From: Betaproteobacteria bacterium
Lineage (GTDB): Bacteria > Pseudomonadota > Gammaproteobacteria > Burkholderiales > SG8-41
Assembly (NCBI GenBank): GCA_947486575.1
Contig: CANKUB010000011.1
Coordinates: 4,030-68,029 of the forward strand
Direction: 5' to 3'
Length of the DNA stretch: 64,000 nt
Both the position numbers and the translations under genes were made by a program. The notes beneath the pieces are model-generated. The model worked only from the letters and a program-made list of their open reading frames with translations. It ran no database searches and had not been told where the DNA came from. Below are positions 5,867 through 51,002 of this stretch, piece after piece; position 1 is the stretch's first letter, and the number at the start of each line of letters is the position of its first letter.

Positions 5867-5894
5867 TCAAGAATTGTCAAAGTCTTGCCGATGA
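5867..5894 (+). promoter_or_regulatory. Putative FliA (sigma-28)-type promoter of the HDOD gene
   Basis: TCAAGAAT-N12-GCCGATGA, ending 25 nt before the ATG at 5919. The same -35 octamer precedes motA and the repeat-protein gene. Confidence 0.5.
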
Positions 5895-5918: not shown

Positions 5919-7277
5919 ATGAGCAAGCCCATACTAATTGCGAATGGCGATGTGCTGGAGGCGAAAGCCCTGGCGGCTGCACTGGCGTCGCAATTTCCAA
6001 CAGAGCCGGTCAGTGATCTTGCAGCACTCAGGCGTAACGCCAAATCTGCCGGGGCAGTAGTCCTCGATACCAATTTCTCCGCTTCGCAAGGTGTTGATTC
6101 CTTGTTGGAATTACTGGCACTGGCGCAATTGCCGGTACTGATGATTACGCCACCAGAAGATGCGGCTTGCGCCATTAAAGCGTTGCGCTACGGCGCAACC
6201 AGTTATCTGGTCAAAACCGGCACCTATGTCGAATTGCTGCCGATGGCGTTACGCGAAGCGATCGAACGTGCTGATGGGTTGCTCAGTCTCAAGGTCCAGC
6301 TTGCTGAACTGCGCAGCCGTAACACAGATCTCGAAAAGCGTTTAACCAACACCAACCGCATCAAGCGCGCGAACACCACCACTCAGATAATCAATAAACG
6401 CAGCGTTACAGCAGTTAGGCAGGTGGAATCGCACCTGCCACTTGAAGAAATGCTTGCGGTGCGGTTGCGCAGCGGCAATATGCAACTGCCTGCCTATCCG
6501 TTGGTAGCAATGAAATTGCGTCAGATCATGAATGCCGAAGTGGGCATGAGCGAGGTCGCGCAACTGCTGTCGCAAGACGCGGCCATCAGCGTCAAACTCC
6601 TGAGGGCTGCCAACGCGGCGCAGTACAGCAACCTGCGCAAAGTGGAAACGATAGACGGCGCAGTAGGTCGCATTGGCATGAACATGACCTGCAATATTGC
6701 CGAGTTGGTAACCAACCGGTCGCTCTATGCCACGCGCAACGCCACTTATCGCACCATTCTGGATGATCTGTGGCTGCACAGCGTGGCGAGCGCGCACGCC
6801 AGCGAAATTATTGCACGGCAGATCGGCAAAGGGTCATGGGAAAAAATGTTTTCCATCGGCCTGCTACACGACGTAGGCAAGCTCGCGCTGCTGCAAGCAG
6901 TTGCCCAATCCGACCCGGAGGGCAAACGTCTGGGGGGCGAAGACAACTGCAATTCGTTCGGCGCGTTTCTTGAGGCCAACCATGTGAAATGCGGCGTGAG
7001 CCTGATGCAACAATGGAATTTTCATCAGGATTTTCACACCGCGGCGCGTTACCACGAAGACCTCTCCGGCGCGGACAAAACCTTTCGCACCCTGCTCATC
7101 GTGCATCTGGCTAATCTGGTGGCACACGCCATCGGTTACGGTTCCGTCATGCAAACGCCCGACGAACTCGATCAAGCGCCTTCAAAGAAGCTGTTGTTCT
7201 CAGAGGAAATGGATTTGACGCCCATCGCGGAAGAAACCAAGCTTGCGGTGGAGGCTACGCAGCAGTTGCTGGCGTAG
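5919..7277 (+). CDS. Receiver-like domain + coiled coil + HDOD domain protein
   Basis: The N-terminus folds like REC but the acidic pair is NGD instead of DD (ILIANGD; VVLDTNF; MIT; LVK). The C-terminal half has an HDOD signature (LPAYPLVAMKLRQIM...LLSQDAAISVKLLRAANAA...GLLHDVGKLAL). Confidence 0.8.
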   Translation: MSKPILIANGDVLEAKALAAALASQFPTEPVSDLAALRRNAKSAGAVVLDTNFSASQGVDSLLELLALAQLPVLMITPPEDAACAIKALRYGATSYLVKTGTYVELLPMALREAIERADGLLSLKVQLAELRSRNTDLEKRLTNTNRIKRANTTTQIINKRSVTAVRQVESHLPLEEMLAVRLRSGNMQLPAYPLVAMKLRQIMNAEVGMSEVAQLLSQDAAISVKLLRAANAAQYSNLRKVETIDGAVGRIGMNMTCNIAELVTNRSLYATRNATYRTILDDLWLHSVASAHASEIIARQIGKGSWEKMFSIGLLHDVGKLALLQAVAQSDPEGKRLGGEDNCNSFGAFLEANHVKCGVSLMQQWNFHQDFHTAARYHEDLSGADKTFRTLLIVHLANLVAHAIGYGSVMQTPDELDQAPSKKLLFSEEMDLTPIAEETKLAVEATQQLLA

Positions 7278-7476: not shown

Positions 7477-9015
7477 CTACACGTGATAGGCGGTCTCGCC
7501 GTGAGAATTAATGTCGAGGCCTTCGCGCTCTTCTTCTTCAGACACGCGCAGCCCTACGATGATATCGGCGATTTTGAAAGCGACGAGGGCAACCACGGCT
7601 GTCCACAGCACGGTTACACCCACCGCTTGCGCCTGGATCCAAACTTGCGCAGCAATGCTCTCAAAGCCCGGCTTCATTTCAAACCAGTTGTTGGGGAAGC
7701 CGGGGCCACCCAAAGCCGGTGAGTTGAAGACGCCGGTGAGCAACGCACCCAGTATGCCACCCACGGCGTGCACGCCGAACACATCCAGTGAATCGTCAGC
7801 CTTGAGTATCTTTTTCAGACCGTTGACACCCCACAGGCAAACGATACCCGCTACCGAGCCAATGACGAAGGCCCCCGCTACACCGACGTTGCCCGCGGCC
7901 GGTGTGATGGCAACCAGGCCTGCCACTGCACCCGAAGCTGCACCCAGCATGGAGGGTTTGCCTTTAAACATCCACTCGGCGAAAGTCCAGGTCAGCACGG
8001 CGCACGCTGTGGCGAGGAAGGTGTTGAGGAATGCCAGCGCGGCGGTGTTATTGGCTTCGAGTGCGGAGCCCGCGTTAAACCCGAACCAGCCCACCCACAG
8101 TAGCGCGGCGCCAATCATGGTCATGGTCAGGTTGTGCGGCTTCATCGCTTCTTTGCCGAAGCCAAGGCGTGGGCCGACAATGTATGCGCCGATCAAGCCC
8201 GCTACGCCCGCGTTGATATGCACCACAGTGCCGCCGGCAAAATCCAGCGCGCCCCACTGCCACAACAAGCCTGCGGTTGCGTTCAGTTTATCCACGACTT
8301 TGGCGTCAACGTAAGCATCCGGACCTTGCCAGAACCACACCATGTGCGCAATCGGCAAATAGGCGAAGGTGAACCAGATGACGGTGAATATCAGCACTGC
8401 CGAGAACTTGATGCGCTCGGCAAACGCACCGAGGATCAGGCAGCAGGTGATGGCGGCGAACGTTGCCTGGAAGGCAACAAACACCAGCTCCGGCAGAACC
8501 ACGCCTTTGCTGAAGGTGCCGACCGTGGCGAAATCGCCTTTCACCGCGTCAATCACTGCGCCTTTCAGGAATAATCGGTCAAAGCCGCCGATGAATGCGT
8601 TGCCCTCGGTGAACGCCAGACTGTAGCCGTAAATACACCACAGCACGGTGACCAGCGAAAACACCACGAACACCTGCATCAGCACTGACAGCATGTTTTT
8701 GGCGCGTACCATGCCACCATAAAACAGCGCCAGCGCGGGGATGCTCATCATCAGCACCAGTGCGGTGGACATCAGCATCCACGCGATATCACCTTTATTG
8801 GTGGTGGATTTCGGCGCGGCAGCTGCGGCCGGCGCGGGCGTTGCTGCTGCAGCCGGTGCAGCCGCTGGCGCAGCTGGTGCGGCGACCGGGGTAGCAGCAG
8901 GCGCCGCCGCTGCGGGTTCTGCTGCTTTTTCGGCGGGCTTGTCCTGGGCGTGCGACGCAAAGTTGGCGCAGACCAGCAATGCCAGGGTGGACAGAATAAG
9001 GCTCAGTCGTTTCAT
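7477..9015 (-). CDS. amtB: Ammonium transporter AmtB with signal peptide and a long Ala/Pro-rich N-terminal linker
   Basis: 512 aa with Amt signatures (DFAGGTVVHINAGVAGL, multiple TM helices). It is downstream of glnK. Residues about 22-70 are low complexity (AAEPAAAAPAATPVAAPAAPAAAPAAAATPAPAAAAAP). Confidence 0.93.
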   Translation of the reverse strand: MKRLSLILSTLALLVCANFASHAQDKPAEKAAEPAAAAPAATPVAAPAAPAAAPAAAATPAPAAAAAPKSTTNKGDIAWMLMSTALVLMMSIPALALFYGGMVRAKNMLSVLMQVFVVFSLVTVLWCIYGYSLAFTEGNAFIGGFDRLFLKGAVIDAVKGDFATVGTFSKGVVLPELVFVAFQATFAAITCCLILGAFAERIKFSAVLIFTVIWFTFAYLPIAHMVWFWQGPDAYVDAKVVDKLNATAGLLWQWGALDFAGGTVVHINAGVAGLIGAYIVGPRLGFGKEAMKPHNLTMTMIGAALLWVGWFGFNAGSALEANNTAALAFLNTFLATACAVLTWTFAEWMFKGKPSMLGAASGAVAGLVAITPAAGNVGVAGAFVIGSVAGIVCLWGVNGLKKILKADDSLDVFGVHAVGGILGALLTGVFNSPALGGPGFPNNWFEMKPGFESIAAQVWIQAQAVGVTVLWTAVVALVAFKIADIIVGLRVSEEEEREGLDINSHGETAYHV

Positions 9016-10905: not shown

Positions 10906-11063
10906 TGCACCGAATCTAGGCACCGCGTCGTACTACAGTATTGCTGCCGAGCCGCCGATAACCCTCATGCGGACGGCGAAATTGATGCAAAAGTCCCTCG
11001 GCTTTTGCCGAGTTAAATTCGCCGTTGCCGCCCGTGGCGCAGAAACGACAGCGAGAATTCAAC

Positions 11064-12266
11064 ATGCTAGTAGAAGACGTGAGTGTGATGGTGGTGGAAG
11101 ATGATGCCTTTCAGCGAAGGATGCTGGTGAGGATACTCACGGATATGGGCGTGAAAAAAATCGATCAAGCACCAGAGGGGAATAGCGCACTGAATATGCT
11201 GCTGGATCGCATTGAGCCGATTGATATCGTGATTTCCGATCTCGATATGCCGACGATGGATGGCATGGAGTTGATTCGCCATCTGGGCGCGCAGCAGTCC
11301 GTCGGTTCGGTGATCGTCACCAGCGGGCTTGATCCCAGCCTGATCAACTCGGTGGAAACCATGGCGCGCGCCTATGGCATTGATTTGCTCGGCGGCATCG
11401 AAAAGCCCGTCACGCAACCCAAGCTCGGTCGCCTCTTCAAACGATTTCTGCTCGAGGGCGCCAGCAAACAAGTGGGCGAAAGTGGCCCCACGTTCACGCT
11501 GGATGAAATTCGAGAAGGCATCGAATCGCTGGAATTTTATCCGTACTACCAGCCGAAAGTGGAGATTGCCACCGGCCGTGTGGTGGGCGCTGAGGCGCTG
11601 GTGCGCTGGCTACACCCGAAACACGGCGTAATTCTGCCCGCACATTTCATCCCGCAAATTGAAGAAGCGGATCTGGTGGATGAACTAACGTGGAATATTC
11701 TGGCCGGTGCGGCCACCCATTGCCGTCGCCTGCGCGAGCACGGTTTTGATATGAGCGTCGCGGTGAATCTATCGCTGAAATCGCTCACCAACACCGGCAT
11801 TGCCGAACGGGTGATGGAGATTCTGCGAGGCGCTGGCATAGAGCCGTGCCACATTATTCTTGAGGTGACCGAAACAGCGGCGATATCCAACGTCGGCCAC
11901 GTGCTGGAAAATCTTGCGCGGTTGCGCATGAAGGGTCTGGGCCTCGCGATTGATGACTACGGCACCGGGTACTCGTCGATGCAGCAGTTGTCACGCATTC
12001 CGTTTACCGAATTAAAAATTGACCGCTCGTTTGTGGCCGACGCTGCGCGACAGGAGCGGCTCAAAGTGATGGTCAGCGCCAGTCTCGACATGACACGCAA
12101 GCTGGGCCTTAAATCGGTGGCGGAAGGCGTGGAAAACCGCACCGATTGGGAACTGCTGGTGCGCTTGAAATGCGACATCGCGCAAGGTTATTTCATTGCC
12201 AAACCGATGCCGTACGAAGCGCTGTGCGAGTGGGTGCCCAATTGGGTATCGCCGCAGCATCGTTAA
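11064..12266 (+). CDS. Response regulator with EAL (c-di-GMP phosphodiesterase) output domain
   Basis: REC (VMVVEDDAFQRRM, IVISDLDMPTMDG, EKP) followed by EAL (YYQPKVEI...GAEALVRW, ILEVTE, LAIDDYGTGYSS, VAEGVE, QGYFIAKP). The start is uncertain: TTG 11025, ATG 11064 or ATG 11088. Confidence 0.88.
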   Translation: MLVEDVSVMVVEDDAFQRRMLVRILTDMGVKKIDQAPEGNSALNMLLDRIEPIDIVISDLDMPTMDGMELIRHLGAQQSVGSVIVTSGLDPSLINSVETMARAYGIDLLGGIEKPVTQPKLGRLFKRFLLEGASKQVGESGPTFTLDEIREGIESLEFYPYYQPKVEIATGRVVGAEALVRWLHPKHGVILPAHFIPQIEEADLVDELTWNILAGAATHCRRLREHGFDMSVAVNLSLKSLTNTGIAERVMEILRGAGIEPCHIILEVTETAAISNVGHVLENLARLRMKGLGLAIDDYGTGYSSMQQLSRIPFTELKIDRSFVADAARQERLKVMVSASLDMTRKLGLKSVAEGVENRTDWELLVRLKCDIAQGYFIAKPMPYEALCEWVPNWVSPQHR

Positions 12267-31821: not shown

Positions 31822-31848
31822 TCAAGAATCCGCCCTGCCTGCCGTAAA
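31822..31848 (+). promoter_or_regulatory. Putative FliA-type promoter of motAB
   Basis: TCAAGAAT-N11-GCCGTAAA, 54 nt before the motA ATG. Confidence 0.5.
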
Positions 31849-40553: not shown

Positions 40554-41294
40554 ATGTATACCGAAAACGGGACGTTGGATCGCAAGCAGTGCATCGAGAA
40601 ATTCTCGCCGATGGTCAAGCGCATTGCGCACCATCTGATGGCGCGCCTGCCGGCCAGTGTGCAATTGGGCGACATGGTGCAGGCGGGACTGATCGGACTG
40701 GTGGATGCCGCAGGCCGCTATGAAAACAGTCAGGGCGTGCAATTTGAAACCTATGCCGCGCAACGCATACGCGGCGCCATGCTCGATGAGCTGCGCACCA
40801 ATGATTGGGTGCCACGCGGCGTGCGCAAGGCGCAACGCAAAATAGATACCGCGCAATCGCAACTGGAGCAAATGCTCGGCCGTGCGCCGCTCGAAGCCGA
40901 AATCGCCGAGCATATGGAAATCCCGCTCGACGACTACCGCGACATGCTGAACGACACCTACGGCTTTCAATTGGTGCACGTCGACGATTTTGATCATGGT
41001 GGGGACGGCGGCGACCGCGGTGAATTTATGGATCGCCATTGTCCACCCGATCACGCCGATCCGTTTGCCATGCTGTCCGATGCGCACTTCAAAAAAGCCT
41101 TGGTCGGGGCGATTGAATTGCTGCCCGAACGTGAAAAACTGCTGATGGGGCTGTATTACGAAAAAGAGTTAAATTTCAAAGAGATAGCCGCAGTACTCGG
41201 TGTAACAGAATCGCGCGTGTGCCAGTTGCACAGTCAGGCGGTGACGCGGCTGCGCGGCAAGCTTAAGGATTGGAAAGGGCAGTGGAATAATTGA
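40554..41294 (+). CDS. fliA: Flagellar sigma factor FliA (sigma-28)
   Basis: 246 aa with region 2 (GDMVQAGLIGLVDAAGRYE...FETYAAQRIRGAMLDELR) and region 4 (ELNFKEIAAVLGVTESRVCQLHSQAVTRLR). Confidence 0.95.
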   Translation: MYTENGTLDRKQCIEKFSPMVKRIAHHLMARLPASVQLGDMVQAGLIGLVDAAGRYENSQGVQFETYAAQRIRGAMLDELRTNDWVPRGVRKAQRKIDTAQSQLEQMLGRAPLEAEIAEHMEIPLDDYRDMLNDTYGFQLVHVDDFDHGGDGGDRGEFMDRHCPPDHADPFAMLSDAHFKKALVGAIELLPEREKLLMGLYYEKELNFKEIAAVLGVTESRVCQLHSQAVTRLRGKLKDWKGQWNN

Positions 41295-41329
41295 GGCTGG
41301 GCACAATCACTGCGGCGCCGTTACAACCT

Positions 41330-41589
41330 TCAGTCCGGCGCTTTCCGCTGCTGTAGCAAGCCGCCTATCGAACACCGGAACACCGCGAAATCGATGGATG
41401 AAACGGCACCAGCATTCAACCGCAATGCACTCGCCAGATGAATGGCATCGAGTCCACGCAATGTTGCCAATGCTTTGTCCTTGGAGACACGGCTTTGCAT
41501 TGCCGCCCCGTGCCCGCTTCGCGCACGTAATGCTTGACCAGCGCCGGGGTATCGAGATGCAGAATCAATGGCGGCCTTGTTTGACCCAC
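41330..41589 (-). pseudogene. Degraded PIN-domain (VapC-like) toxin gene
   Basis: The N-terminal PIN motif ILHLDTPALVKHYVREAGT is in one frame and the C-terminal motif LRGLDAIHLASALRL is in another. The total span of about 87 codons is too short for a PIN domain, so a frameshift plus an internal deletion is inferred. Confidence 0.5.
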
Positions 41590-41671
41590 ATGGAGAGCGA
41601 CACGCCTTACGATTCGATTCGCCCTGCGGCAGGCCGACGGGCTTGCCGCCATTCCAGCGGATGCCAAACAA

Positions 41672-41816
41672 TTACGCCAGCGATGCAAGTGATGCGCTGG
41701 CTTCAAACGGCACAATGCGCGCTATAGGGAGTTTATGCGCTTTGGCCGTCACGGCTTGGCCCTCAACGGCCCTTTTGACGTAGCTACGGAGACTGGCTTG
41801 CCTGCGTGCCCATCAT
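41672..41816 (-). pseudogene. Remnant of a Phd/YefM-type antitoxin gene
   Basis: The frame encodes ...SLRSYVKRAVEGQAVTAKAHKLPIARIVPFEASASLASLA*, resembling the (GKPVARLVP) antitoxin core. The only SD-preceded ATG (41816) is in a different frame, so a 5' frameshift is apparent. Confidence 0.4.
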
Positions 41817-41991
41817 CAAAGTGCCCACACCTTTCTATTGGTGAACGCATTAGTAGCGCAGCACTGATCCGCGTAAATTTATGGGGCGCGACGCAAGTGT
41901 TCCCATGCCGCCGCCACTGTCAATCGGGTGACAGCTAAAATGTAGAAGTTGCGCGCCGATCTGACAGTTACTGATTGGTCGTGCTGGGTTG

Positions 41992-42293
41992 TCAGATCAA
42001 TTCAGTTGCGTAACGTTGGTGTCGTAGCCCTCCTTTCCGGCAATCAGAATCGGCTTGCAGTTGCATGAGTGGCTCGTAAATCTTCTTTCTGAATGGCATC
42101 TGATAGAACTCCTGCGAGATCGTCTTGTGGAAACGCTCGCAGACGCCGTCGGTTTGCGGTTGACGCATTGGCTCTTGGTATGCTCGACCCTCTCCTTTGT
42201 GGTCCGGCTTGCGCCGGAATCATGTACTAGTTTCTCCAATATGGGCCCGCTTCGAATGTTTTGAGGCTGCTGCCCAAAATGGAGGAGCATCAA
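41992..42293 (-). mobile_element. Frameshifted C-terminal fragment of a DDE (rve/integrase-core) transposase, IS481-like
   Basis: The minus strand encodes ...RVEHTKSQ / (frameshift) / PQTDGVCERFHKTISQEFYQMPFRKKIYEPLMQLQAD, the hallmark PQTNGxxERF region. The N-terminal two thirds of the transposase are absent. A 9-bp inverted repeat GATCTGACA/TGTCAGATC lies at 41959-41999. Confidence 0.55.
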
Positions 42294-42318
42294 GTGCGGG
42301 GTTCAACCATCACCAATT

Positions 42319-45234
42319 TTACATATTCAAATACTGTATCTGTGTCGTCGTGAACTGCGATATCTGCGTCGTCGTCAGTGCTCCCACTTGCGGGGCCGTC
42401 AGCGCGCCCACCTGGCTGGTCGTCAACTGTGCTACGGGCAGTGCCGTCACCTGGGTGGTGGATAGTGCTGCTATTTCCAAGGCTGAGATCGACTGGATTT
42501 GCGCCGTGCTCAAGGCACCCAGCACTGTGGTGGTCAACCCCGACACCTGCGCGGTGGTCAATGCCCCAATCTGCGCGGTGGTTAAAGTGGCTCCCAAGCC
42601 GCTGATCTGCGTGTAAATCATAGCCGCGACTTGGCTGGTTGTGATGCCTGTGACCTGCGTGGTAGATAAGGCACCCAACTGCGTGGTCGTGAGTGAGCCG
42701 ATTTCCTTGGTCGATATGGCCTGCAACTGCACCGTGCTCAAGCCGCCCAGCGTGGTGGTGCTCAGTCCCGACGCTTGCGCGGTAGTCAATGCGCCTATCT
42801 GCGAGGTGGTGAAGGCCGTACCCAGTGCGCCGATCTGGGCCGTTGTCAGCGAGGCAATTTCGCTCGTCGAGATGGCCTGCAACTGGGCTGTGCTCAAGGT
42901 TCCCAGCACCGTGGTTGTCAGACCAGCGGCTTGCGCTGTGGTCAATGCGCCAATCTGCGTGGTGGTTAAACTGGCTCCCAGGCCGCTGATCTGCGTGTAA
43001 ATCATGGCCGCGACCTGGCTGGTTGTGATGCCTGTGACCTGCGTGGTCGAAAATCCGCCCAACTGCGTGGTGGTCAGTGCGGCAATTTCCTTGGTCGAGA
43101 TCGCCTGTAACTGTGCGGTGCTCAAGCCCCCCAGCGTGGTGGTGCTCAGTCCCGATGCCTGCGCGGTGGTCAACGCGCCGATCTGCGCGGTGGTGAAGGC
43201 GGTACCCAATGCGCCAACCTGGGCCGTTGTCAGTGAGGAGATATCACTGGCTGAGATCGCCTGCAATTGAGCTGTGCTCAAGGTTCCCAGCACCGTGGTT
43301 GTCAGTCCTGAGGATTGCGCTGCGATCAGCGCATCCACTTGCGTAGTGGTGAATTTTGCCGCCAGCGTTCCAACCTGGGCGGTCGTCAGTGCCGCCACCT
43401 GACTGGTCGTGATGCCTGTGACCTGGGTGGTCGATAAGGCGCCCAACTGGGTGGTCGTCAGTGAGCCGATTTCCTTGGTGGATATCGACTGTAATTGTGC
43501 CGTGCTCAAGCTGCCCAGCGTGGTGGTGCTCAATCCTGAAGCTTGCGCCGTGGTCAGTGCACCAATCTGGCTGGTGGTGAAAGTGGTTCCCAACGCGCCG
43601 ACCTGAGCTGTCGTCAGCGAGGCAATTTCGCTCGTCGAGATGGCCTGCAACTGGGCCGTGCTCAGGGTACCCAACACGGTAGTGGTCAGTCCTGAAGCCT
43701 GCGCGGTGGTTAATGCGCCAATCTGTGTGGTGGTCAAATTGGCTGCCAATGAACTCACCTGGGCGGTCGTCAGCGCTGCTACCTGGCTGGTTGTGATGCC
43801 AGTAGCCTGTGTGGTCGATAAGGCGCCCAACTGCGTGGTCGTGAGTGAGCCGATTTCCTTGGTCGATATGGCCTGCAACTGGGCCGTGCTCAAGCTGCCC
43901 AGCGTGGTGGTGCTCAATCCTGAAGCTTGCGCCGTCGTCAGTGCGCCGATCTGCGCGGTGGTGAAAGCGGTAGTCAATGCGCCGACTTGAGCCGTTGTCA
44001 GTGCAGCGATCTCATTCGTCGAGATGGCTTGCAACTGCGCTGTAGTCAGAGTGCCTATCACCGTGGTCGTCAGTCCAGCGGCTTGCGCTGTGGTCAATGC
44101 GCCAATCTGTGTGGTGGTCAAATTGGCCGCCAATGAACTCACCTGGGCGGTCGTGAGTGCTGCCACCTGGCTGGTCGTGATTCCGGTGACCTGCGTGGTC
44201 GATAAGGCGCCCAACTGCGTGGTCGTCAGTGAACCGATTTCCTTGGTCGATATGGCCTGCAATTGCGCCGTGCTCAAGCTGCCCAGCGTGGTGGTGCTCA
44301 ATCCTGAAGCCTGCGCCGTGGTCAGTGCGCCAATTTGCGCGGTGGTGAAGGCGGTAGTCAATGCACCGACTTGAGCCGTTGTCAGTGCAGCGATTTCCTT
44401 GGTGGAGATCGCCTGCAATTGCGCCGTGCTCAGGGTTCCCAGCACCGTGGTTGTCAGTCCAGCGGCTTGCGCTGTGGTCAATGCGCCAATCTGCGTGGTG
44501 GTTAAATTAGCTGCGAGGGATCCAACCTGAGCGGCTGTGAGTGCTGCCACCTGACTGGTCGTGATGCCTGTGACCTGCGTGGTCGATAAGGCGCCCAACT
44601 GTGTGGTCGTCAGTGAGCCGATTTCCTTGGTGGATATCGACTGTAATTGTGCCGTGCTCAAGCTGCCCAGCGTGGTGGTGCTCAATCCTGAAGCTTGCGC
44701 CGTCGTCAGTGCGCCGATCTGCGCGGTGGTGAAGGCGGTAGTCAATGCACCGACTTGAGCCGTTGTCAGTGCAGCGATTTCCTTGGTGGAGATCGCCTGC
44801 AATTGCGCCGTGCTCAGGGCACCCAGCACCGTGGTTGTCAGTCCAGCGGCTTGTGCTGTGGTCAATGCGCCAATCTGTGTGGTGGTTAAATTGGCTGCCA
44901 GTGTCCCGGCCTGGCTGACCGTCAGCGCGGATACCTGACTCGTAGTCAGGGCGGCAATCTGGCTGGTTGACAAGGCCGAAACCTGTGCCGTTGTCAGAAC
45001 CGCTATGTCTGCTTTGCTGATCGCATCCAGCTGCGAGTTACTGAACAGGGCAAGTGCAGCCGTGCTGATCTGGACAATGTTTACGGTAGAGATTGCCCCG
45101 ATCTGGGCCGTCGTCAATTGCTGTGCCTGAGTCGTACTCAGGGCCTGAATATCGCTAGTGGATAGTGACGATATCTGCTTGGTGCTCAGAGCCGCGATTT
45201 GCGTCGGCGACAGGGACGATATGATGGAAGTCAT
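42319..45234 (-). CDS. 971-aa Thr/Ala/Ser/Gln-rich octapeptide-repeat protein of no family I can name
   Basis: The ATG at 45234 has AGGAG 9 nt upstream. The whole protein is a run of about 120 octads of the type L-[ST]-T-[AT]-Q-[IVL]-x-[AGS]. I see no signal peptide, TM segment, Cys or Trp, and K/E occur almost only in the ISTKEI octad. It ends inside repeat-like sequence (TTTQIQYLNM). Confidence 0.8.
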   Translation of the reverse strand: MTSIISSLSPTQIAALSTKQISSLSTSDIQALSTTQAQQLTTAQIGAISTVNIVQISTAALALFSNSQLDAISKADIAVLTTAQVSALSTSQIAALTTSQVSALTVSQAGTLAANLTTTQIGALTTAQAAGLTTTVLGALSTAQLQAISTKEIAALTTAQVGALTTAFTTAQIGALTTAQASGLSTTTLGSLSTAQLQSISTKEIGSLTTTQLGALSTTQVTGITTSQVAALTAAQVGSLAANLTTTQIGALTTAQAAGLTTTVLGTLSTAQLQAISTKEIAALTTAQVGALTTAFTTAQIGALTTAQASGLSTTTLGSLSTAQLQAISTKEIGSLTTTQLGALSTTQVTGITTSQVAALTTAQVSSLAANLTTTQIGALTTAQAAGLTTTVIGTLTTAQLQAISTNEIAALTTAQVGALTTAFTTAQIGALTTAQASGLSTTTLGSLSTAQLQAISTKEIGSLTTTQLGALSTTQATGITTSQVAALTTAQVSSLAANLTTTQIGALTTAQASGLTTTVLGTLSTAQLQAISTSEIASLTTAQVGALGTTFTTSQIGALTTAQASGLSTTTLGSLSTAQLQSISTKEIGSLTTTQLGALSTTQVTGITTSQVAALTTAQVGTLAAKFTTTQVDALIAAQSSGLTTTVLGTLSTAQLQAISASDISSLTTAQVGALGTAFTTAQIGALTTAQASGLSTTTLGGLSTAQLQAISTKEIAALTTTQLGGFSTTQVTGITTSQVAAMIYTQISGLGASLTTTQIGALTTAQAAGLTTTVLGTLSTAQLQAISTSEIASLTTAQIGALGTAFTTSQIGALTTAQASGLSTTTLGGLSTVQLQAISTKEIGSLTTTQLGALSTTQVTGITTSQVAAMIYTQISGLGATLTTAQIGALTTAQVSGLTTTVLGALSTAQIQSISALEIAALSTTQVTALPVAQLTTSQVGALTAPQVGALTTTQISQFTTTQIQYLNM
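42598..44901 (-). repeat. Six tandem, near-identical 384-bp (128-aa) higher-order units inside the repeat-protein gene, plus a partial seventh extending to about 42440
   Basis: Unit boundaries were counted from the protein (units start at aa 112, 240, 368, 496, 624, 752). Antisense ORFs recur at 384-bp and 768/1152-bp offsets (43640/44024; 42641/43409/44561). Confidence 0.9.
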
Positions 45235-45337
45235 GAGTCATTGCTCCTATATTAATTGTCTATGGTCGGTTGCTTCACCGCCAATCGCGCCACCATTTTG
45301 GAAGTCGCGACACAACGCTCCGTTGAGCCTACACACA

Positions 45338-45364
45338 TCAACGGCGCTGCTTTTAAATTCTTGA
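45338..45364 (-). promoter_or_regulatory. Putative FliA-type promoter of the repeat-protein gene
   Basis: The minus strand reads TCAAGAAT-N11-GCCGTTGA, about 100 nt upstream of the ATG. The -35 octamer is identical to those upstream of motA and the HDOD gene. Confidence 0.5.
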
Positions 45365-45667
45365 GGCTCACGTAAATCGTCGCCAGGATTCTGGACGCGA
45401 ACGGCTGCGGGGGCGTATGCAACGACAATCGGCTCAAGCGACTGGCCTTGCAGAACGTCCTGCGCAAGAAACAACTAAGGAAGCACTAAAGAAACGACTG
45501 ACCGAGTCGCTACTGAAGAATGCTGCGCAGAAAACCTGCGTACCTCATCAATACGGCGGGTGCTGGCGCGGGACAGGCCATGCAAAGCGTCAAAGCAAAG
45601 GGGCAAAGATGCGTCAGTTAGAGGCCCCCGTTCGGATCGCAGTTTTTGCGCCCGACTGATTCAGCCC

Positions 45668-48436
45668 TTATTGACGTATTGCGTAAAGCGCCATGTGGGC
45701 GTGCTGCTGGTCGGACAGGGCAAGATCGATCATTTCAAAACCGCTGGCGCGCACAAGCTTGATGATTCGCTCGCGGCTGAAATTGTGACAGCGTTCCATT
45801 TGTGACCAATACGGGTTGGCGTTGGCAGCATCCATGGCTTTCCAGCTTGAGGACATGAGGTCAGGCATGCCTATGACCATCAGGCCACCGGGTCGCAGCA
45901 CTTGCGCCGCTTTGCGTAAAGCTTCCAGCGGATACGGAATATGGTCCAGAACATCCATCAGGGACAGCACATCGACCACGATTTTGAATTGCAGGGTTAT
46001 AAAATCGTGCTGCATCGCATTGAAACCCAATGCCTGAACGTTCTTAACCGCATCAAGTCGTGTGTCCAGTCCGACAGCGGCAAAGCCATAATCTGCGGCG
46101 GTCATGACTAATGCACCGTCGCCGCATCCGGCATCCACCCAGACCGGTCGGCTGGGCTGGTTGATAAAGTTCGGGTAGCCACCAAGGTGAGTGACTGCTT
46201 TTCCCACCACCTTAGTCCATGTCGCCCGCCTCGCACCGTAAATACCATTGGCGTCCGCAATCGATCTTGCACTGGCGTCGCGGAATACTTCGGTCAAACC
46301 GGCTGGCGTCCAGTAATGACGTTTATATACGTGATCGCACGACGCGCACCGCATCCATTCGGCGGAAAGCGGCAAAGGTGTGTGCCACAAATCCTGTTTA
46401 GAACAATCTGCGAAACCTAACGTCGCGCTGGCACCGTCGCACAGGGGGCAGGCTGCGAAGGCGGCCTGCCATTCTGGCGCAGGTTCCGCAATGATGGCAT
46501 CGGCCTTCGGTGCGTCAGCCGGGGGCCGCACTACCGACCCGCAGTCGGGTACGTCGATAGGTCCATGTGGTGCGCCGCTGTCATGCCGCTGCACCATTAA
46601 CTCGATCGCCGTTTCAAAATTCTGGGTAAACCGCAAGGTATCGAACAGCGGTGCTGTTGTGCGGTTCGCCGCAATTTTATTTCGCAGCGCCAGTCGATAG
46701 TCTGTTTCAGTGCCCATGCGTTTTGCGATACGCACCATATCGTCATGGTTTGCGCCAACCAGCTCCGGCAAATCAATCGCATTCAGCAGACTTTCGCTGA
46801 CGCGCGAGGGAAAATGCCCGCCTCGGCAGGTAATTACAGGAATGCCTGCCCATAGCGCATCCGACGTAGTGGTATGTCCATTGCAGGTCAGCGTATCAAG
46901 GACCGCGTCGGCAAGCTGCAAGCGCGCCAGATGTGCCTGCGGGGCGGCAAACGGTGCGAAGATCAGTCTATCCGGCGCAATTCCGGCTAGCTGTGCGTAA
47001 CGCGACAGATTCTCAACAGCAGCCGGGCTTTGACCCAACATCCAAAGTACACTGTTTGGCACCTCATTCAAAATGCGCATCCAGACGGCAAAACTGGTGC
47101 GATCAACCTTGTAAGACTGGTTGAAGGCACCGAATATGAACTTGTCGTCCGGGAGTCCGTGCAAGGCGCGAGTACCGGGATACGCTGCAAGAAAGCGCCT
47201 GCTGTCGTTGCACTGGTAGGTGTGGGGCAGGCGACAGAATGCCTCGGTGTAAAACGGCGCGCTGCTGTCGGGTGTAACGAACCGGTCCGACACGATGTAG
47301 TCAATGTCAGCGTTCGCCGCACTGCCGGGGTAACCCAGGTAAGCCACTTGCAGCGGCGCGGGCCGGTAGGCCATGATGCCCGGACGACCGCCACCCGTGT
47401 AAAGCTTCAAATCAAACAGAATGTCCAGTTGATCTTCCGCGATGCGGGCGGCAGCCTGCCTGTCGCTCAGCGAGTGGATTTCAACGTGATGTTCGACAGC
47501 ATTGAGAAAACGTTGCCGGTAGTCGGAAACATCGAAACTGCTGTAGTCATACGCAAAGACTTCGAAGCGATCCCGATCATGGGATTCAAAAATGCCCGCC
47601 ATCAGATACATGGTTGCATGGTTGCGAAAATCGCATGACACGTAGCCTACACGAATACGTTTTCCCTGGGGCCGGACAGCTTTGGCCTTATGCGGTTCAT
47701 TACGTGGTTCAACTTGCGGCACCATACGTTTTACATAATCGCGGGTCACGCCCAGGTTGTAGGCTTCGTCCATGCACCAAGTCAGGTGCGTCAACGGATA
47801 TTCATGGGGTGCGTCAAAGTTGCCGCGCTCGTACCACGCGCCGATTTTTTGCTGCAGCGATTCAACCCATTCCCACTCGCAGGTGAAGCGTGCCGGCACC
47901 AAGGCAGCCCCGACCAGCGCAGGATCGTCGGGCGATAGCGTGACAATCTTTTTGAAAGCAGCTGAAGATTCTTCATACAAATCAACACTTTGCAGTAGCA
48001 ATGCCGCACGCGAGAGAAGCTGGGGATTGCTACTGACCAGCAGTTGGCGTCGGGCAAATTCAAGCGCCTCACTGTGGCGGTTGGCATTGAAAAGCGTGGT
48101 AATCAGCGCGTCTAATATCACCTCGCTATCCGAGTCTTCACCGAGGGCGGTTTGCAGGCATCTGACGGCTTCATCTGTGTTGCGCTCGGCCGCCAGCAAT
48201 ACTCCCGCCGCCAGCCAGTTGCGTGCGCCGCCACCTTTTGCGCCAGCTTCCTGGAATGCCTCAATGGCTTCGGCCAGACGCCCGGACTGCCGCAATGCCT
48301 CAGCTTTCAGTGCCAGCACCGCAGGGTGCTTGGGCTGTTGCGCCAGCAATTTATCGAGTTTGGGCAAGGCCTTGGCGGCGTACCCGTTGTTAACCTGCTT
48401 AAGCAGCGTAGCCAACTGCTCTGCCTGGATTATCAT
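45668..48436 (-). CDS. Tri-domain enzyme: N-terminal TPR + GT41 (O-GlcNAc-transferase-like) glycosyltransferase + C-terminal class I SAM methyltransferase
   Basis: 922 aa. The TPR-like first ~200 aa are followed by a central region with RIRVGYVSCDFRNHATMYL, LQVAYLGYPGSAANADIDYIV, FGAFNQSYKV and CNGHTTTSDALWAGIPVITCRGGHFPSRVSESLL, which closely resembles the OGT catalytic C-terminus (CNGHTTGMDVLWAGTPMVT). The last ~270 aa have a Cys4 motif and VWVDAGCGDGALVM...LRPGGLMVIGMP. Confidence 0.85.
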   Translation of the reverse strand: MIIQAEQLATLLKQVNNGYAAKALPKLDKLLAQQPKHPAVLALKAEALRQSGRLAEAIEAFQEAGAKGGGARNWLAAGVLLAAERNTDEAVRCLQTALGEDSDSEVILDALITTLFNANRHSEALEFARRQLLVSSNPQLLSRAALLLQSVDLYEESSAAFKKIVTLSPDDPALVGAALVPARFTCEWEWVESLQQKIGAWYERGNFDAPHEYPLTHLTWCMDEAYNLGVTRDYVKRMVPQVEPRNEPHKAKAVRPQGKRIRVGYVSCDFRNHATMYLMAGIFESHDRDRFEVFAYDYSSFDVSDYRQRFLNAVEHHVEIHSLSDRQAAARIAEDQLDILFDLKLYTGGGRPGIMAYRPAPLQVAYLGYPGSAANADIDYIVSDRFVTPDSSAPFYTEAFCRLPHTYQCNDSRRFLAAYPGTRALHGLPDDKFIFGAFNQSYKVDRTSFAVWMRILNEVPNSVLWMLGQSPAAVENLSRYAQLAGIAPDRLIFAPFAAPQAHLARLQLADAVLDTLTCNGHTTTSDALWAGIPVITCRGGHFPSRVSESLLNAIDLPELVGANHDDMVRIAKRMGTETDYRLALRNKIAANRTTAPLFDTLRFTQNFETAIELMVQRHDSGAPHGPIDVPDCGSVVRPPADAPKADAIIAEPAPEWQAAFAACPLCDGASATLGFADCSKQDLWHTPLPLSAEWMRCASCDHVYKRHYWTPAGLTEVFRDASARSIADANGIYGARRATWTKVVGKAVTHLGGYPNFINQPSRPVWVDAGCGDGALVMTAADYGFAAVGLDTRLDAVKNVQALGFNAMQHDFITLQFKIVVDVLSLMDVLDHIPYPLEALRKAAQVLRPGGLMVIGMPDLMSSSWKAMDAANANPYWSQMERCHNFSRERIIKLVRASGFEMIDLALSDQQHAHMALYAIRQ

Positions 48437-48822
48437 AAGACTCCAATTTATCAGTGGTATTCACTATGTCGCGGCACATAGCGGCTTTAGGCTGGAAAAG
48501 CGAAGCGCGTGCTACGATGACCTTTGCAAAATGAATACGCAATATTTTCATCGAATCATTTGATTTGAATCTGCAAAATAGGCGGTAGAAACCCCGTCTG
48601 TAGACTAAATTGCCACCTAAATTCTAGATCGAGTAAGCAGAATTTAAGTAGGTCAACCTTTCAAGCAGAGATTGCTATGGAAGGTATCGTGTGAAAGGCC
48701 CATGCCCTTGCAGGCATTGGAGACATTGCCAGACTTGGTCGCTAGATTGAGCCGGTCGAGCTTGCGCAAGCGCCGCACGCCAAATGCAGATTTGCCTTGT
48801 ATGCGCGTTGAATTGCGTTGCG

Positions 48823-49212
48823 CTAAATCCCCAAATACCCATTCGCGCGGTATAACGTATTCGCGCGATGATCACCGCCGCGCAGCAGACGCAGGCGGCT
48901 TTCGCAGGCGGTGCGGTGCATGGCCAGCATGGTGGCATTGATGGCGTTAAGGCGTTGCGCACGACGGGCCAGCGCGGGCACTTCCGGCTCAATTGCGCTG
49001 GCGCTGTCGGTAGCATAGTGGGTGCCGCCGCACAGCACGTGCAGATCGTTGACGAGCACCTGCTTTGCTGCAGCGATGGCTTCCAGCACTTCGACTTGCG
49101 GATTGCCCAATGCTTGCCGTTCATGCTCCAGCAGCGCGATAAAGGTGGTGAGCGCCTGGTGCTTAGGCCCCGGTTTCAAAGCAGCGGTCGCCTGCGGTGT
49201 GAGGTCATGCAT
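48823..49212 (-). CDS. flgN: Flagellar chaperone FlgN
   Basis: 129 aa following flgM with an 8-nt overlap: LTTFIALLEHERQALGNPQVEVLEAIAAAKQVLVNDL. Confidence 0.8.
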   Translation of the reverse strand: MHDLTPQATAALKPGPKHQALTTFIALLEHERQALGNPQVEVLEAIAAAKQVLVNDLHVLCGGTHYATDSASAIEPEVPALARRAQRLNAINATMLAMHRTACESRLRLLRGGDHRANTLYRANGYLGI

Positions 49213-49516
49213 ACTGGCGACCCATCAATTCGCCGATGCTCTGGATCACTTTGTCGGCGACGGCTTCTGCATTAACCTTGTAGCTGCCGTCGCGTATGGC
49301 GGCCTTGATTTGCTCTACACGCGTGGCATCGAATTCGGGTTCGCGGCTCAGTTTGGTCTCCAGTTGATGTATTTGCGTGGATAAATCCGATAGCCGGATT
49401 GATCCGCTGCCCTCGTCCGCAGTGGCCGTGCCGGCTTTGGCGGAAGCGCTGGATGCCGCAGGAGTGGCCTGCGTTAACGGGGCATTAATTTTATATAAGT
49501 TATTGATTACATTCAT
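49205..49516 (-). CDS. flgM: Anti-sigma-28 factor FlgM
   Basis: 103 aa with C-terminal DATRVEQIKAAIRDGSYKVNAEAVADKVI. Confidence 0.9.
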   Translation of the reverse strand: MNVINNLYKINAPLTQATPAASSASAKAGTATADEGSGSIRLSDLSTQIHQLETKLSREPEFDATRVEQIKAAIRDGSYKVNAEAVADKVIQSIGELMGRQYA

Positions 49517-50609: not shown

Positions 50610-51002
50610 ATGATAGACCGAATAGAACAGACCCTGCGCTTTCAGAGCGATGCGTTGCAGTTGCGCGCGCAGCGCCAGCAGGTACTGTCCGCGAATATCG
50701 CCAATGCCGACACGCCTGGCTACAAGGCGCTGGACTTCGACTTTGCGCGCGCCATGCGCGACACCCAAAGCGGCGCGCGCGTGACACAGCACATCAGCGC
50801 CCCCGCCCACATGAGGCCGCAGTTTTTGACGGCAACCTCTGCCGAGGAAAGCGATGCCATACAGCCCGCGCAAGACGGCAACACCGTGGACATGGATCGC
50901 GAACGTGCTCGCTTTGCCGACAATGCGGTGCGCTATGAAGCCACACTTAAATTCCTTAACGGCCAGATTCGCACACTCTTGAGTGCCATCCAGGGACAAT
51001 AG
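50610..51002 (+). CDS. flgB: Flagellar proximal rod protein FlgB
   Basis: 130 aa from the ATG at 50610: ...LRAQRQQVLSANIANADTPGYKA... Confidence 0.92.
   Translation: MIDRIEQTLRFQSDALQLRAQRQQVLSANIANADTPGYKALDFDFARAMRDTQSGARVTQHISAPAHMRPQFLTATSAEESDAIQPAQDGNTVDMDRERARFADNAVRYEATLKFLNGQIRTLLSAIQGQ

Follow-up and report, generated by a model that had tools for sequence, protein, structure and literature searches.

The ALTTAQ-repeat gene and its predicted promoter

What drives expression of the ALTTAQ-repeat gene, which codes for a protein of an uncharacterised family and lies between fliA and flgM in the flagellar locus of a Betaproteobacteria bacterium? The stretch of DNA analysed, referred to as the window, covers 64,000 nucleotides (C11:4030-68029) of a 5.35-Mb draft genome and is identified by Pfam and NCBIfam family matches as a flagellar and chemotaxis super-cluster. 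It encodes MCP-cheR-cheD-cheB followed by a REC-HDOD gene and, at a greater distance, by a REC-EAL phosphodiesterase gene, as well as fliL with its neighbours, a YcgR-like gene, fliK, fliS, fliD, fliC, flhDC, motAB, flhBAFG and fliA. The ALTTAQ-repeat gene, a TPR-GT41-methyltransferase fusion, flgN, flgM and flgA are found on the minus strand, and flgB-L on the plus strand. The genes of most concern here are:

40554..41294, plus strand: fliA, the sigma-28 factor expected to read the predicted promoters (NF005413, 298.7 bits)
42319..45234, minus strand: ALTTAQ-repeat gene, coding for protein P0001, 971 aa, Thr/Ser-rich, with 23 Pfam PF20080 repeats
45668..48436, minus strand: TPR-GT41-methyltransferase fusion gene (GT41 gene), directly upstream of the ALTTAQ-repeat gene and without a sigma-28 site of its own
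48823..49212, minus strand: flgN, a 129-aa ORF with a Pfam FlgN match that overlaps the flgM stop
49205..49516, minus strand: flgM, the anti-sigma-28 factor (Pfam/NCBIfam)

The sigma factor and its anti-sigma factor are thus both present in the window, and a family search gives this fliA as the single FliA above cut-off in the whole genome. A 149-aa ORF at 48675-49124 (minus strand), in a different frame, has no family match and is not flgN. An AT-rich spacer of 386 nt separates flgN from the GT41 gene. The GT41 and ALTTAQ-repeat genes are co-directional and 433 nt apart, and a single, weak terminator-like hairpin (45511-45493) lies in the gap, hairpins of this kind being no commoner in the region than in shuffled sequences.

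Upstream of the ALTTAQ-repeat gene lies a two-block element composed of the -35 octamer TCAAGAAT (45364-45357), a spacer of 11 nt and the -10 octamer GCCGTTGA (45345-45338). It is intergenic, oriented towards the ALTTAQ-repeat gene, and the end of its -10 element is 103 nt from the ATG (45234). TCAAGAAT and TAAAGTTT are equal at five of eight positions; TCAAGAAT has C instead of A at position 2, and A instead of T at both 6 and 7. GCCGTTGA agrees with GCCGATAA at six of eight, its GCCG core intact and its fifth and seventh letters being T and G. The spacers, of 11 nt at the ALTTAQ-repeat gene and motA and of 12 nt at the HDOD gene, correspond to the sigma-28 range of 11-12 nt. The window has the following predicted sigma-28 promoters:

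45338..45364, minus strand: ALTTAQ-repeat gene, TCAAGAAT-N11-GCCGTTGA
5867..5894, plus strand: REC-HDOD gene (5919-7277), TCAAGAAT-N12-GCCGATGA
31822..31848, plus strand: motAB, TCAAGAAT-N11-GCCGTAAA
30460..30487, minus strand: fliC, TAAAGTTT-N12-TCCGTTAA
49591..49617, minus strand: flgM-flgN, TAAAGTTT-N11-GCCGAAAA
28033..28059, minus strand: fliS, within the 3' end of fliD, TCAATAAT-N11-GCCGATAA
10934..10961, plus strand: weaker sigma-28-like site before the REC-EAL c-di-GMP phosphodiesterase gene (11025-12266), TACAGTAT-N12-GCCGATAA

The pattern TCAAGAAT-N10-13-GCCG has three exact matches in the window, at 5867-5890 (plus strand), 31822-31844 (plus strand) and 45342-45364 (minus strand), for an expectation of 0.06 per window drawn from 100 dinucleotide shuffles, none of which reached three. 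All three are in intergenic spacers and each points to its downstream gene, the -10 element ending 24 nt short of the HDOD ATG (5919), within the 81-nt cheB-HDOD spacer, and 53 nt short of the motA ATG (31902). These counts bear out the motif by which a preliminary description of this DNA had linked the repeat gene to motA and the HDOD gene. The same description had assigned TAAAGTTT-N11/12 elements to fliC and flgM; both are present, with the caveat that the fliC -10 element has T rather than G as first letter and so is not strictly GCCG-initiated. It had also noticed no sigma-28 motif before the GT41 gene, in agreement with our finding of no sigma-28-like site of at least 9 bits between flgN and the GT41 gene.

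Distribution of the motif in the genome and in a congener

A crude gene map based on codon statistics assigns 87% of the genome to 4722 genes, leaving 13% as intergenic DNA. The 13 genome-wide matches of TCAAGAAT-N10-13-GCCG are only modestly above a simple expectation of ~8, and eight of them are intergenic (binomial P = 6e-5 relative to the 13% of intergenic DNA). Some five of the 13 have the look of chance matches, among them those in the thiC leader, near nusG and inside genes. The matches before thiC, nusG and a CoA-transferase-like gene, together with the intragenic ones, have poor -10 elements and were judged accidental. When TCAAGAAT is combined with the full -10 element (GCCGWWRA, spacer 11-12), four matches are found in the genome and none in the reversed genome, for a chance expectation of about 0.1 (a rough estimate from element counts). 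All four are upstream of genes: HDOD, motA, the ALTTAQ-repeat gene and a gene coding for an 853-aa MshEN-T2SSE ATPase.

A two-block weight matrix gives nine real matches at 22 bits or more versus 0-0.4 in reversed and Markov-2 controls, and 15 at 20 bits or more versus about 3.5 in controls, so that three to four arise by chance per genome at this threshold; its top scores are partly circular since the matrix was built from sites picked in the same genome. The site before the ALTTAQ-repeat gene scores 24.9 bits and exceeds all control matches. The total number of matches to the loose pattern T[AC]AAG-N14-15-GCCGWWRA is not enriched (19 versus 17 in the reversed genome) and only their intergenic placement is, so the total count was dropped as a test in favour of intergenic placement and downstream gene content. 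The genome-wide enrichment that the preliminary description proposed to look for thus holds for intergenic placement and for motility, chemotaxis and c-di-GMP genes, and fails for the loose-pattern total.

The intergenic high scorers precede genes for PilZN-PilZ (YcgR type), HD-GYP, motA, the ALTTAQ-repeat gene, flgM, REC-HDOD, fliC and fliS, and also a single-domain CheY, a transmembrane sensor, a giant adhesin, the REC-EAL gene and a second HDOD gene. Genes downstream of the predicted sites are a typical FliA regulon mix of motor, filament, chemotaxis and c-di-GMP genes, of the kind under FliA control in E. coli, where ycgR and yhjH are among them (PMC4183435). The predicted regulon is rich in c-di-GMP signalling functions, with the YcgR-like PilZ, HD-GYP, REC-EAL, two HDOD proteins and the MshEN-domain T2SSE ATPase, whose 853 residues include a long N-terminus without family match; it also has a stand-alone cheY. 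Predicted-regulon sites of c-di-GMP and cheY genes outside the window are:

C72:10275-10301
C113:8085-8111
C37:26599-26625
C194:228-254
C80:21296-21322

The closest congener, G002, whose MotA is 89% identical, is syntenic with the window from cheB to flgL. Its flanking sequences diverge and sigma-28-like sites are kept at five genes:

HDOD gene of G002: TAAGGTTT-N12-GCCGATGT
fliS of G002: TCAATAAA-N11-GCCGATAA
fliC of G002: TAAAGTTT-N12-TCCGATAA
motA of G002: TCAAGAGG-N11-GCCGTAAA
flgM of G002: TAAAGTTT-N11-GCCGTATC

In both genomes most genes keep a -35 type of their own: fliC and flgM (and flgK in G002) have TAAAGTTT and motA has TCAAGA, a distribution that may reflect tiers of differing promoter strength or timing inside class III. 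The HDOD promoter has switched its -35 type between TAAAG and TCAAG in G002 relative to this genome. A MotA orthologue (E <= 1e-40) is found in only 8 of 20 congeners (G001-G020), flagellar genes being patchy in the genus. A further high-scoring sigma-28-like site of the window, TCAAGAGT-N11-GCCGTTAA at 50956-50982 (minus strand, 22.4 bits), is antisense within the 3' end of flgB and faces flgA-flgM-flgN. It is near-identical in G002 (43336-43362, minus strand, one spacer change). ChIP-seq in E. coli has revealed FliA promoters of internal or antisense type, and this could be another; alternatively, it is just the coding sequence that is conserved here.

No GT41 or ALTTAQ gene is found between fliA and flgM of G002 (C3 38625-41714; L072/L073), an interval of about 3.1 kb versus 7.9 kb here (41295-49204), and the two genes are likewise missing from 40 relatives, 20 of them congeners, among which no ALTTAQ protein was found. 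These absences suggest that the pair entered the flagellar cluster in this lineage, and it looks like an acquired and rearranged insertion. Because the repeat gene is missing from the 40 relatives, footprinting within the genus is impossible and more distant orthologues were compared.

Sites before ALTTAQ-repeat genes of other genomes

The scan of GTDB representative genomes gave four loci with an assessable orthologue, a fifth being a C-terminal fragment at a contig end. A sigma-28-type site precedes the ATG by 85-103 nt in all four, the four orthologues being mutually related and hence not independent samples:

L067, Paraburkholderia panacisoli: TAAAGATT-N11-GCCGTTGA, 103 nt to the ATG, with -10 octamer and distance equal to those here
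L066, Pseudomonadota MAG: TAAAGTTT-N11-GTCGTTAC, about 102 nt to the ATG
L068, Pseudomonas izuensis: TAAAGTAT-N11-GTCGATAA, about 99 nt to the ATG
L069, Pseudomonas sp.: TCAAGTAT-N11-GTCGATAG, about 85 nt to the ATG

Alignment of five upstream regions has a mean column identity of 58%, and its invariant islands CT-AAG--T and G-CG-T are the -35 and -10 blocks. The two Pseudomonas sites differ exactly by A/C at -35 position 2, indicating that TAAAG and TCAAG can stand in for each other within one element. In the predicted leader of about 96 nt of the ALTTAQ-repeat gene, whose single-sequence z-score is -1.3, no conserved structure was detected (RNAalifold energy of only -3.7 kcal/mol, covariation term positive). 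The GT41-methyltransferase gene follows the repeat gene in three of the four orthologous loci and its product is 65-68% identical to the window copy; the gene order here, GT41 then ALTTAQ, is reversed in these three cassettes. In Paraburkholderia panacisoli the repeat gene is about 2.3 kb from fliC-fliD, whose fliC promoter is TAAAGTTT-N11-GCCGATAC. This locus has a second, divergent site, TCAAGCTT-N11-GCCGTTAA, without obvious downstream gene (L067 sites at 7761-7787, minus strand, and 7871-7897, plus strand).

Of 401 genomes sampled from the order, 16 have PF20080 genes. FliA is encoded in 16 of the 18 genomes with a PF20080 match compared with 257 of 401 overall (P = 0.02), and the two exceptions are incomplete assemblies. 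Sites upstream of the repeat gene at the more distant loci are:

L053: TCAAGTTC-N11-TCCGAAAA, 107 nt upstream of the ATG
L057: TAAAGTCC-N11-GCCGTTAC, 81 nt upstream of the ATG
L059: TAAAGTAT-N11-GCCGATAC, 99 nt upstream of the ATG
L063: TAAAGTTT-N11-GCCGACCA, about 59 nt upstream of the ATG
L054 and L061: weaker sites

A site of at least 13 bits, in the right orientation and at most 200 nt upstream, is present in 9 of 15 assessable ALTTAQ loci from other genomes (binomial P about 1e-16, with the other matches in those loci as background and the loci not fully independent). A tenth locus with a site was found by pattern, and at five ALTTAQ loci no sigma-28-type site was found before the repeat gene. 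In most ALTTAQ loci the site before the repeat gene is the sole or best one in 10-23 kb. Among order-level loci the fetched flanks include a GT41 gene in 2 of 13, and among close orthologues in 3 of 4. Flagellar genes adjoin none of the 13 order-level loci and, among all loci fetched, only that of Paraburkholderia panacisoli (beside fliC and fliD). Since the order-level loci are away from flagellar genes, the conserved promoter is not a by-product of location.

Probable FliA control and the ALTTAQ-repeat protein

A consensus TCAAG-t-N12-GCCGATA has reportedly been described in P. putida. Our literature search found no published TCAAG consensus for pseudomonads, and the papers found give a TAAAG type for Pseudomonas. 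P. aeruginosa sigma-28 recognises TCTAAAG (-35, fliC) and GCCGATAA (-10) in a cryo-EM open complex (PMC12784957), and a P. fluorescens study uses TAAAGTTT-N11-GCCGATAA (PMC7286023). The predicted promoters share with Pseudomonas FliA promoters the -10 consensus and the sigma factor family, and the Pseudomonas orthologue sites are TCAAGTAT-N11-GTCGATAG and TAAAGTAT-N11-GTCGATAA. E. coli FliA drives motAB-cheAW, fliC, flgMN, ycgR and yhjH, and its promoters with a TCAAG -35 bound in ChIP-seq are those of flgKL (TCAAGTCC...GCCGATAA) and fliLMNOPQR (TCAAGACG...GCCGATAA) (PMC4183435). The architecture found here is like that of class III promoters of Enterobacteria (TAAAGTTT-N11-GCCGATAA) in its two blocks, its 11-12 nt spacer and its GCCG-initiated extended -10, in the placement of sites before motA, fliC, flgM and c-di-GMP genes, and in the presence of fliA and flgM. 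It differs by a preferred -35 that is TCAAGAAT and not TAAAGTTT, TCAAG being found in E. coli only at flgKL and fliL (PMC4183435). The -10 element GCCGTTGA at the repeat gene and the nature of the regulated gene, which codes for an ALTTAQ-repeat protein, are further differences. We know of no ALTTAQ-repeat protein in a FliA regulon.

The element at 45338-45364 (minus strand) is very probably a working promoter for FliA (sigma-28) RNA polymerase. We infer that FliA holoenzyme would bind 45364-45338 and that transcription would start about 6-8 nt past the -10 element, near 45330, giving the leader of about 96 nt. One sigma factor would read the TCAAGAAT promoters (repeat gene, motA, HDOD) and the TAAAGTTT promoters (fliC, flgM), and since FliA would read those of motA, HDOD, fliC and flgM as well, the ALTTAQ-repeat gene would belong to the class III (late) regulon. 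It would be off while FlgM holds FliA and on only once the finished hook-basal body has let FlgM out of the cell. The GT41-methyltransferase gene is perhaps read through from the flgM promoter, in which case both the GT41 and ALTTAQ-repeat genes may be FliA-controlled. The earlier assignment of the repeat gene as a late, FliA-type flagellar gene is supported by sequence comparison: the single fliA, the motif placement, the congener, the orthologues and the E. coli TCAAG promoters all argue for it.

The co-directional arrangement of the GT41 and repeat genes, 433 nt apart with an intervening hairpin that is weak and not above chance, would also fit a repeat gene transcribed for the most part by polymerases that read through from upstream, started either in the flgM-flgN-GT41 unit or at a GT41 promoter, with the motif minor or silent. 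No GT41-specific promoter was found, which we counted in favour of read-through. In the orthologues, however, the repeat gene comes first with no co-directional gene upstream and yet the site is kept at an equivalent distance, which indicates that the site itself is under selection. Transcription reaching the gene from flgM would, moreover, also depend on FliA. We consider this explanation unlikely.

Still less probable, in our view, is that the site is a functionless chance occurrence. Accidental matches do exist, as about five of the 13 strict matches and the three to four matrix matches of 20 bits or more expected per genome illustrate, but an intergenic, correctly oriented site whose score tops every control, with a position conserved in four orthologues and a counterpart in 9-10 of 15 homologous loci, is hard to account for in this way. 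Equally improbable is a separate, non-FliA regulon composed of the repeat gene, motA and HDOD, with the TCAAGAAT class read by another sigma factor or regulator than the TAAAGTTT class. The gene-specific -35 types of the two congeners (TCAAG at motA, TAAAGTTT at fliC and flgM in both) and the fourfold recurrence of the exact octamer with a full -10 would agree with such a division. It is opposed by the single FliA-family gene above cut-off in the genome, by a -10 element and spacer that are equal in both classes, by orthologous promoters that switch between TAAAG and TCAAG (the two Pseudomonas; HDOD in G002) and by the in vivo binding of E. coli FliA to TCAAG promoters (PMC4183435).

A sigma-28-type promoter is of an ordinary, textbook kind; what is new is the predicted, conserved FliA link for an uncharacterised protein family. 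To our knowledge, PF20080 'ALTTAQ repeat' proteins, which reach up to thousands of residues, have no described function, and a literature search for the name 'ALTTAQ' found no paper. The single PDB sequence match of the protein is 9zem 'HeliScrew4' (E = 1.5e-10), a de novo designed alpha-helical screw of 8-residue repeats, which a 2025 preprint (bioRxiv 10.64898/2025.12.04.691947) introduced as a new super-secondary structure. By this match, natural ALTTAQ proteins appear to be an unrecognised natural counterpart of the designed helical screw. The N-terminus, MTSI(I/V)TS(L/M)S, is conserved in the orthologues and shows no evident Sec-type signal peptide. Together with the late promoter, these features are circumstantial indications of a flagellar type III export substrate, a membership that we do not claim.

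Non-flagellar proteins under sigma-28 control, some of them exported by the flagellar apparatus, include Yersinia YplA, Campylobacter FlaC/FspA and Xenorhabdus XlpA/XhlBA. Like them, the ALTTAQ-repeat gene codes for a non-axial, probably extracellular protein without Sec signal peptide and has a predicted late flagellar promoter. Unlike them, its product is a 971-aa predicted helical repeat rod paired with a GT41 glycosyltransferase, and export by any route is hypothetical here. A bolder idea, which we regard as possible though rather doubtful, is that in Burkholderiales and Pseudomonas the FliA regulon widely includes ALTTAQ-repeat proteins, a membership so far overlooked. They would form a glycosylated helical-screw rod made only after hook-basal-body completion. 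The flagellum would then export this rod or carry it on its surface, as a sheath, fibril or adhesin, and GT41 would be its dedicated modifier. In this genome the flgMN-GT41 and promoter-ALTTAQ arrangements would then put both genes under FliA.

The analysis yields a predicted FliA regulon for this organism. A putative late-flagellar promoter kept in several Burkholderiales families and in Pseudomonas, even far from flagellar genes, would be the first regulatory clue to ALTTAQ biology. It moves ALTTAQ from a repeat protein of unknown role to a testable hypothesis, that of FlgM/FliA-gated expression and of a function at or with the flagellum.
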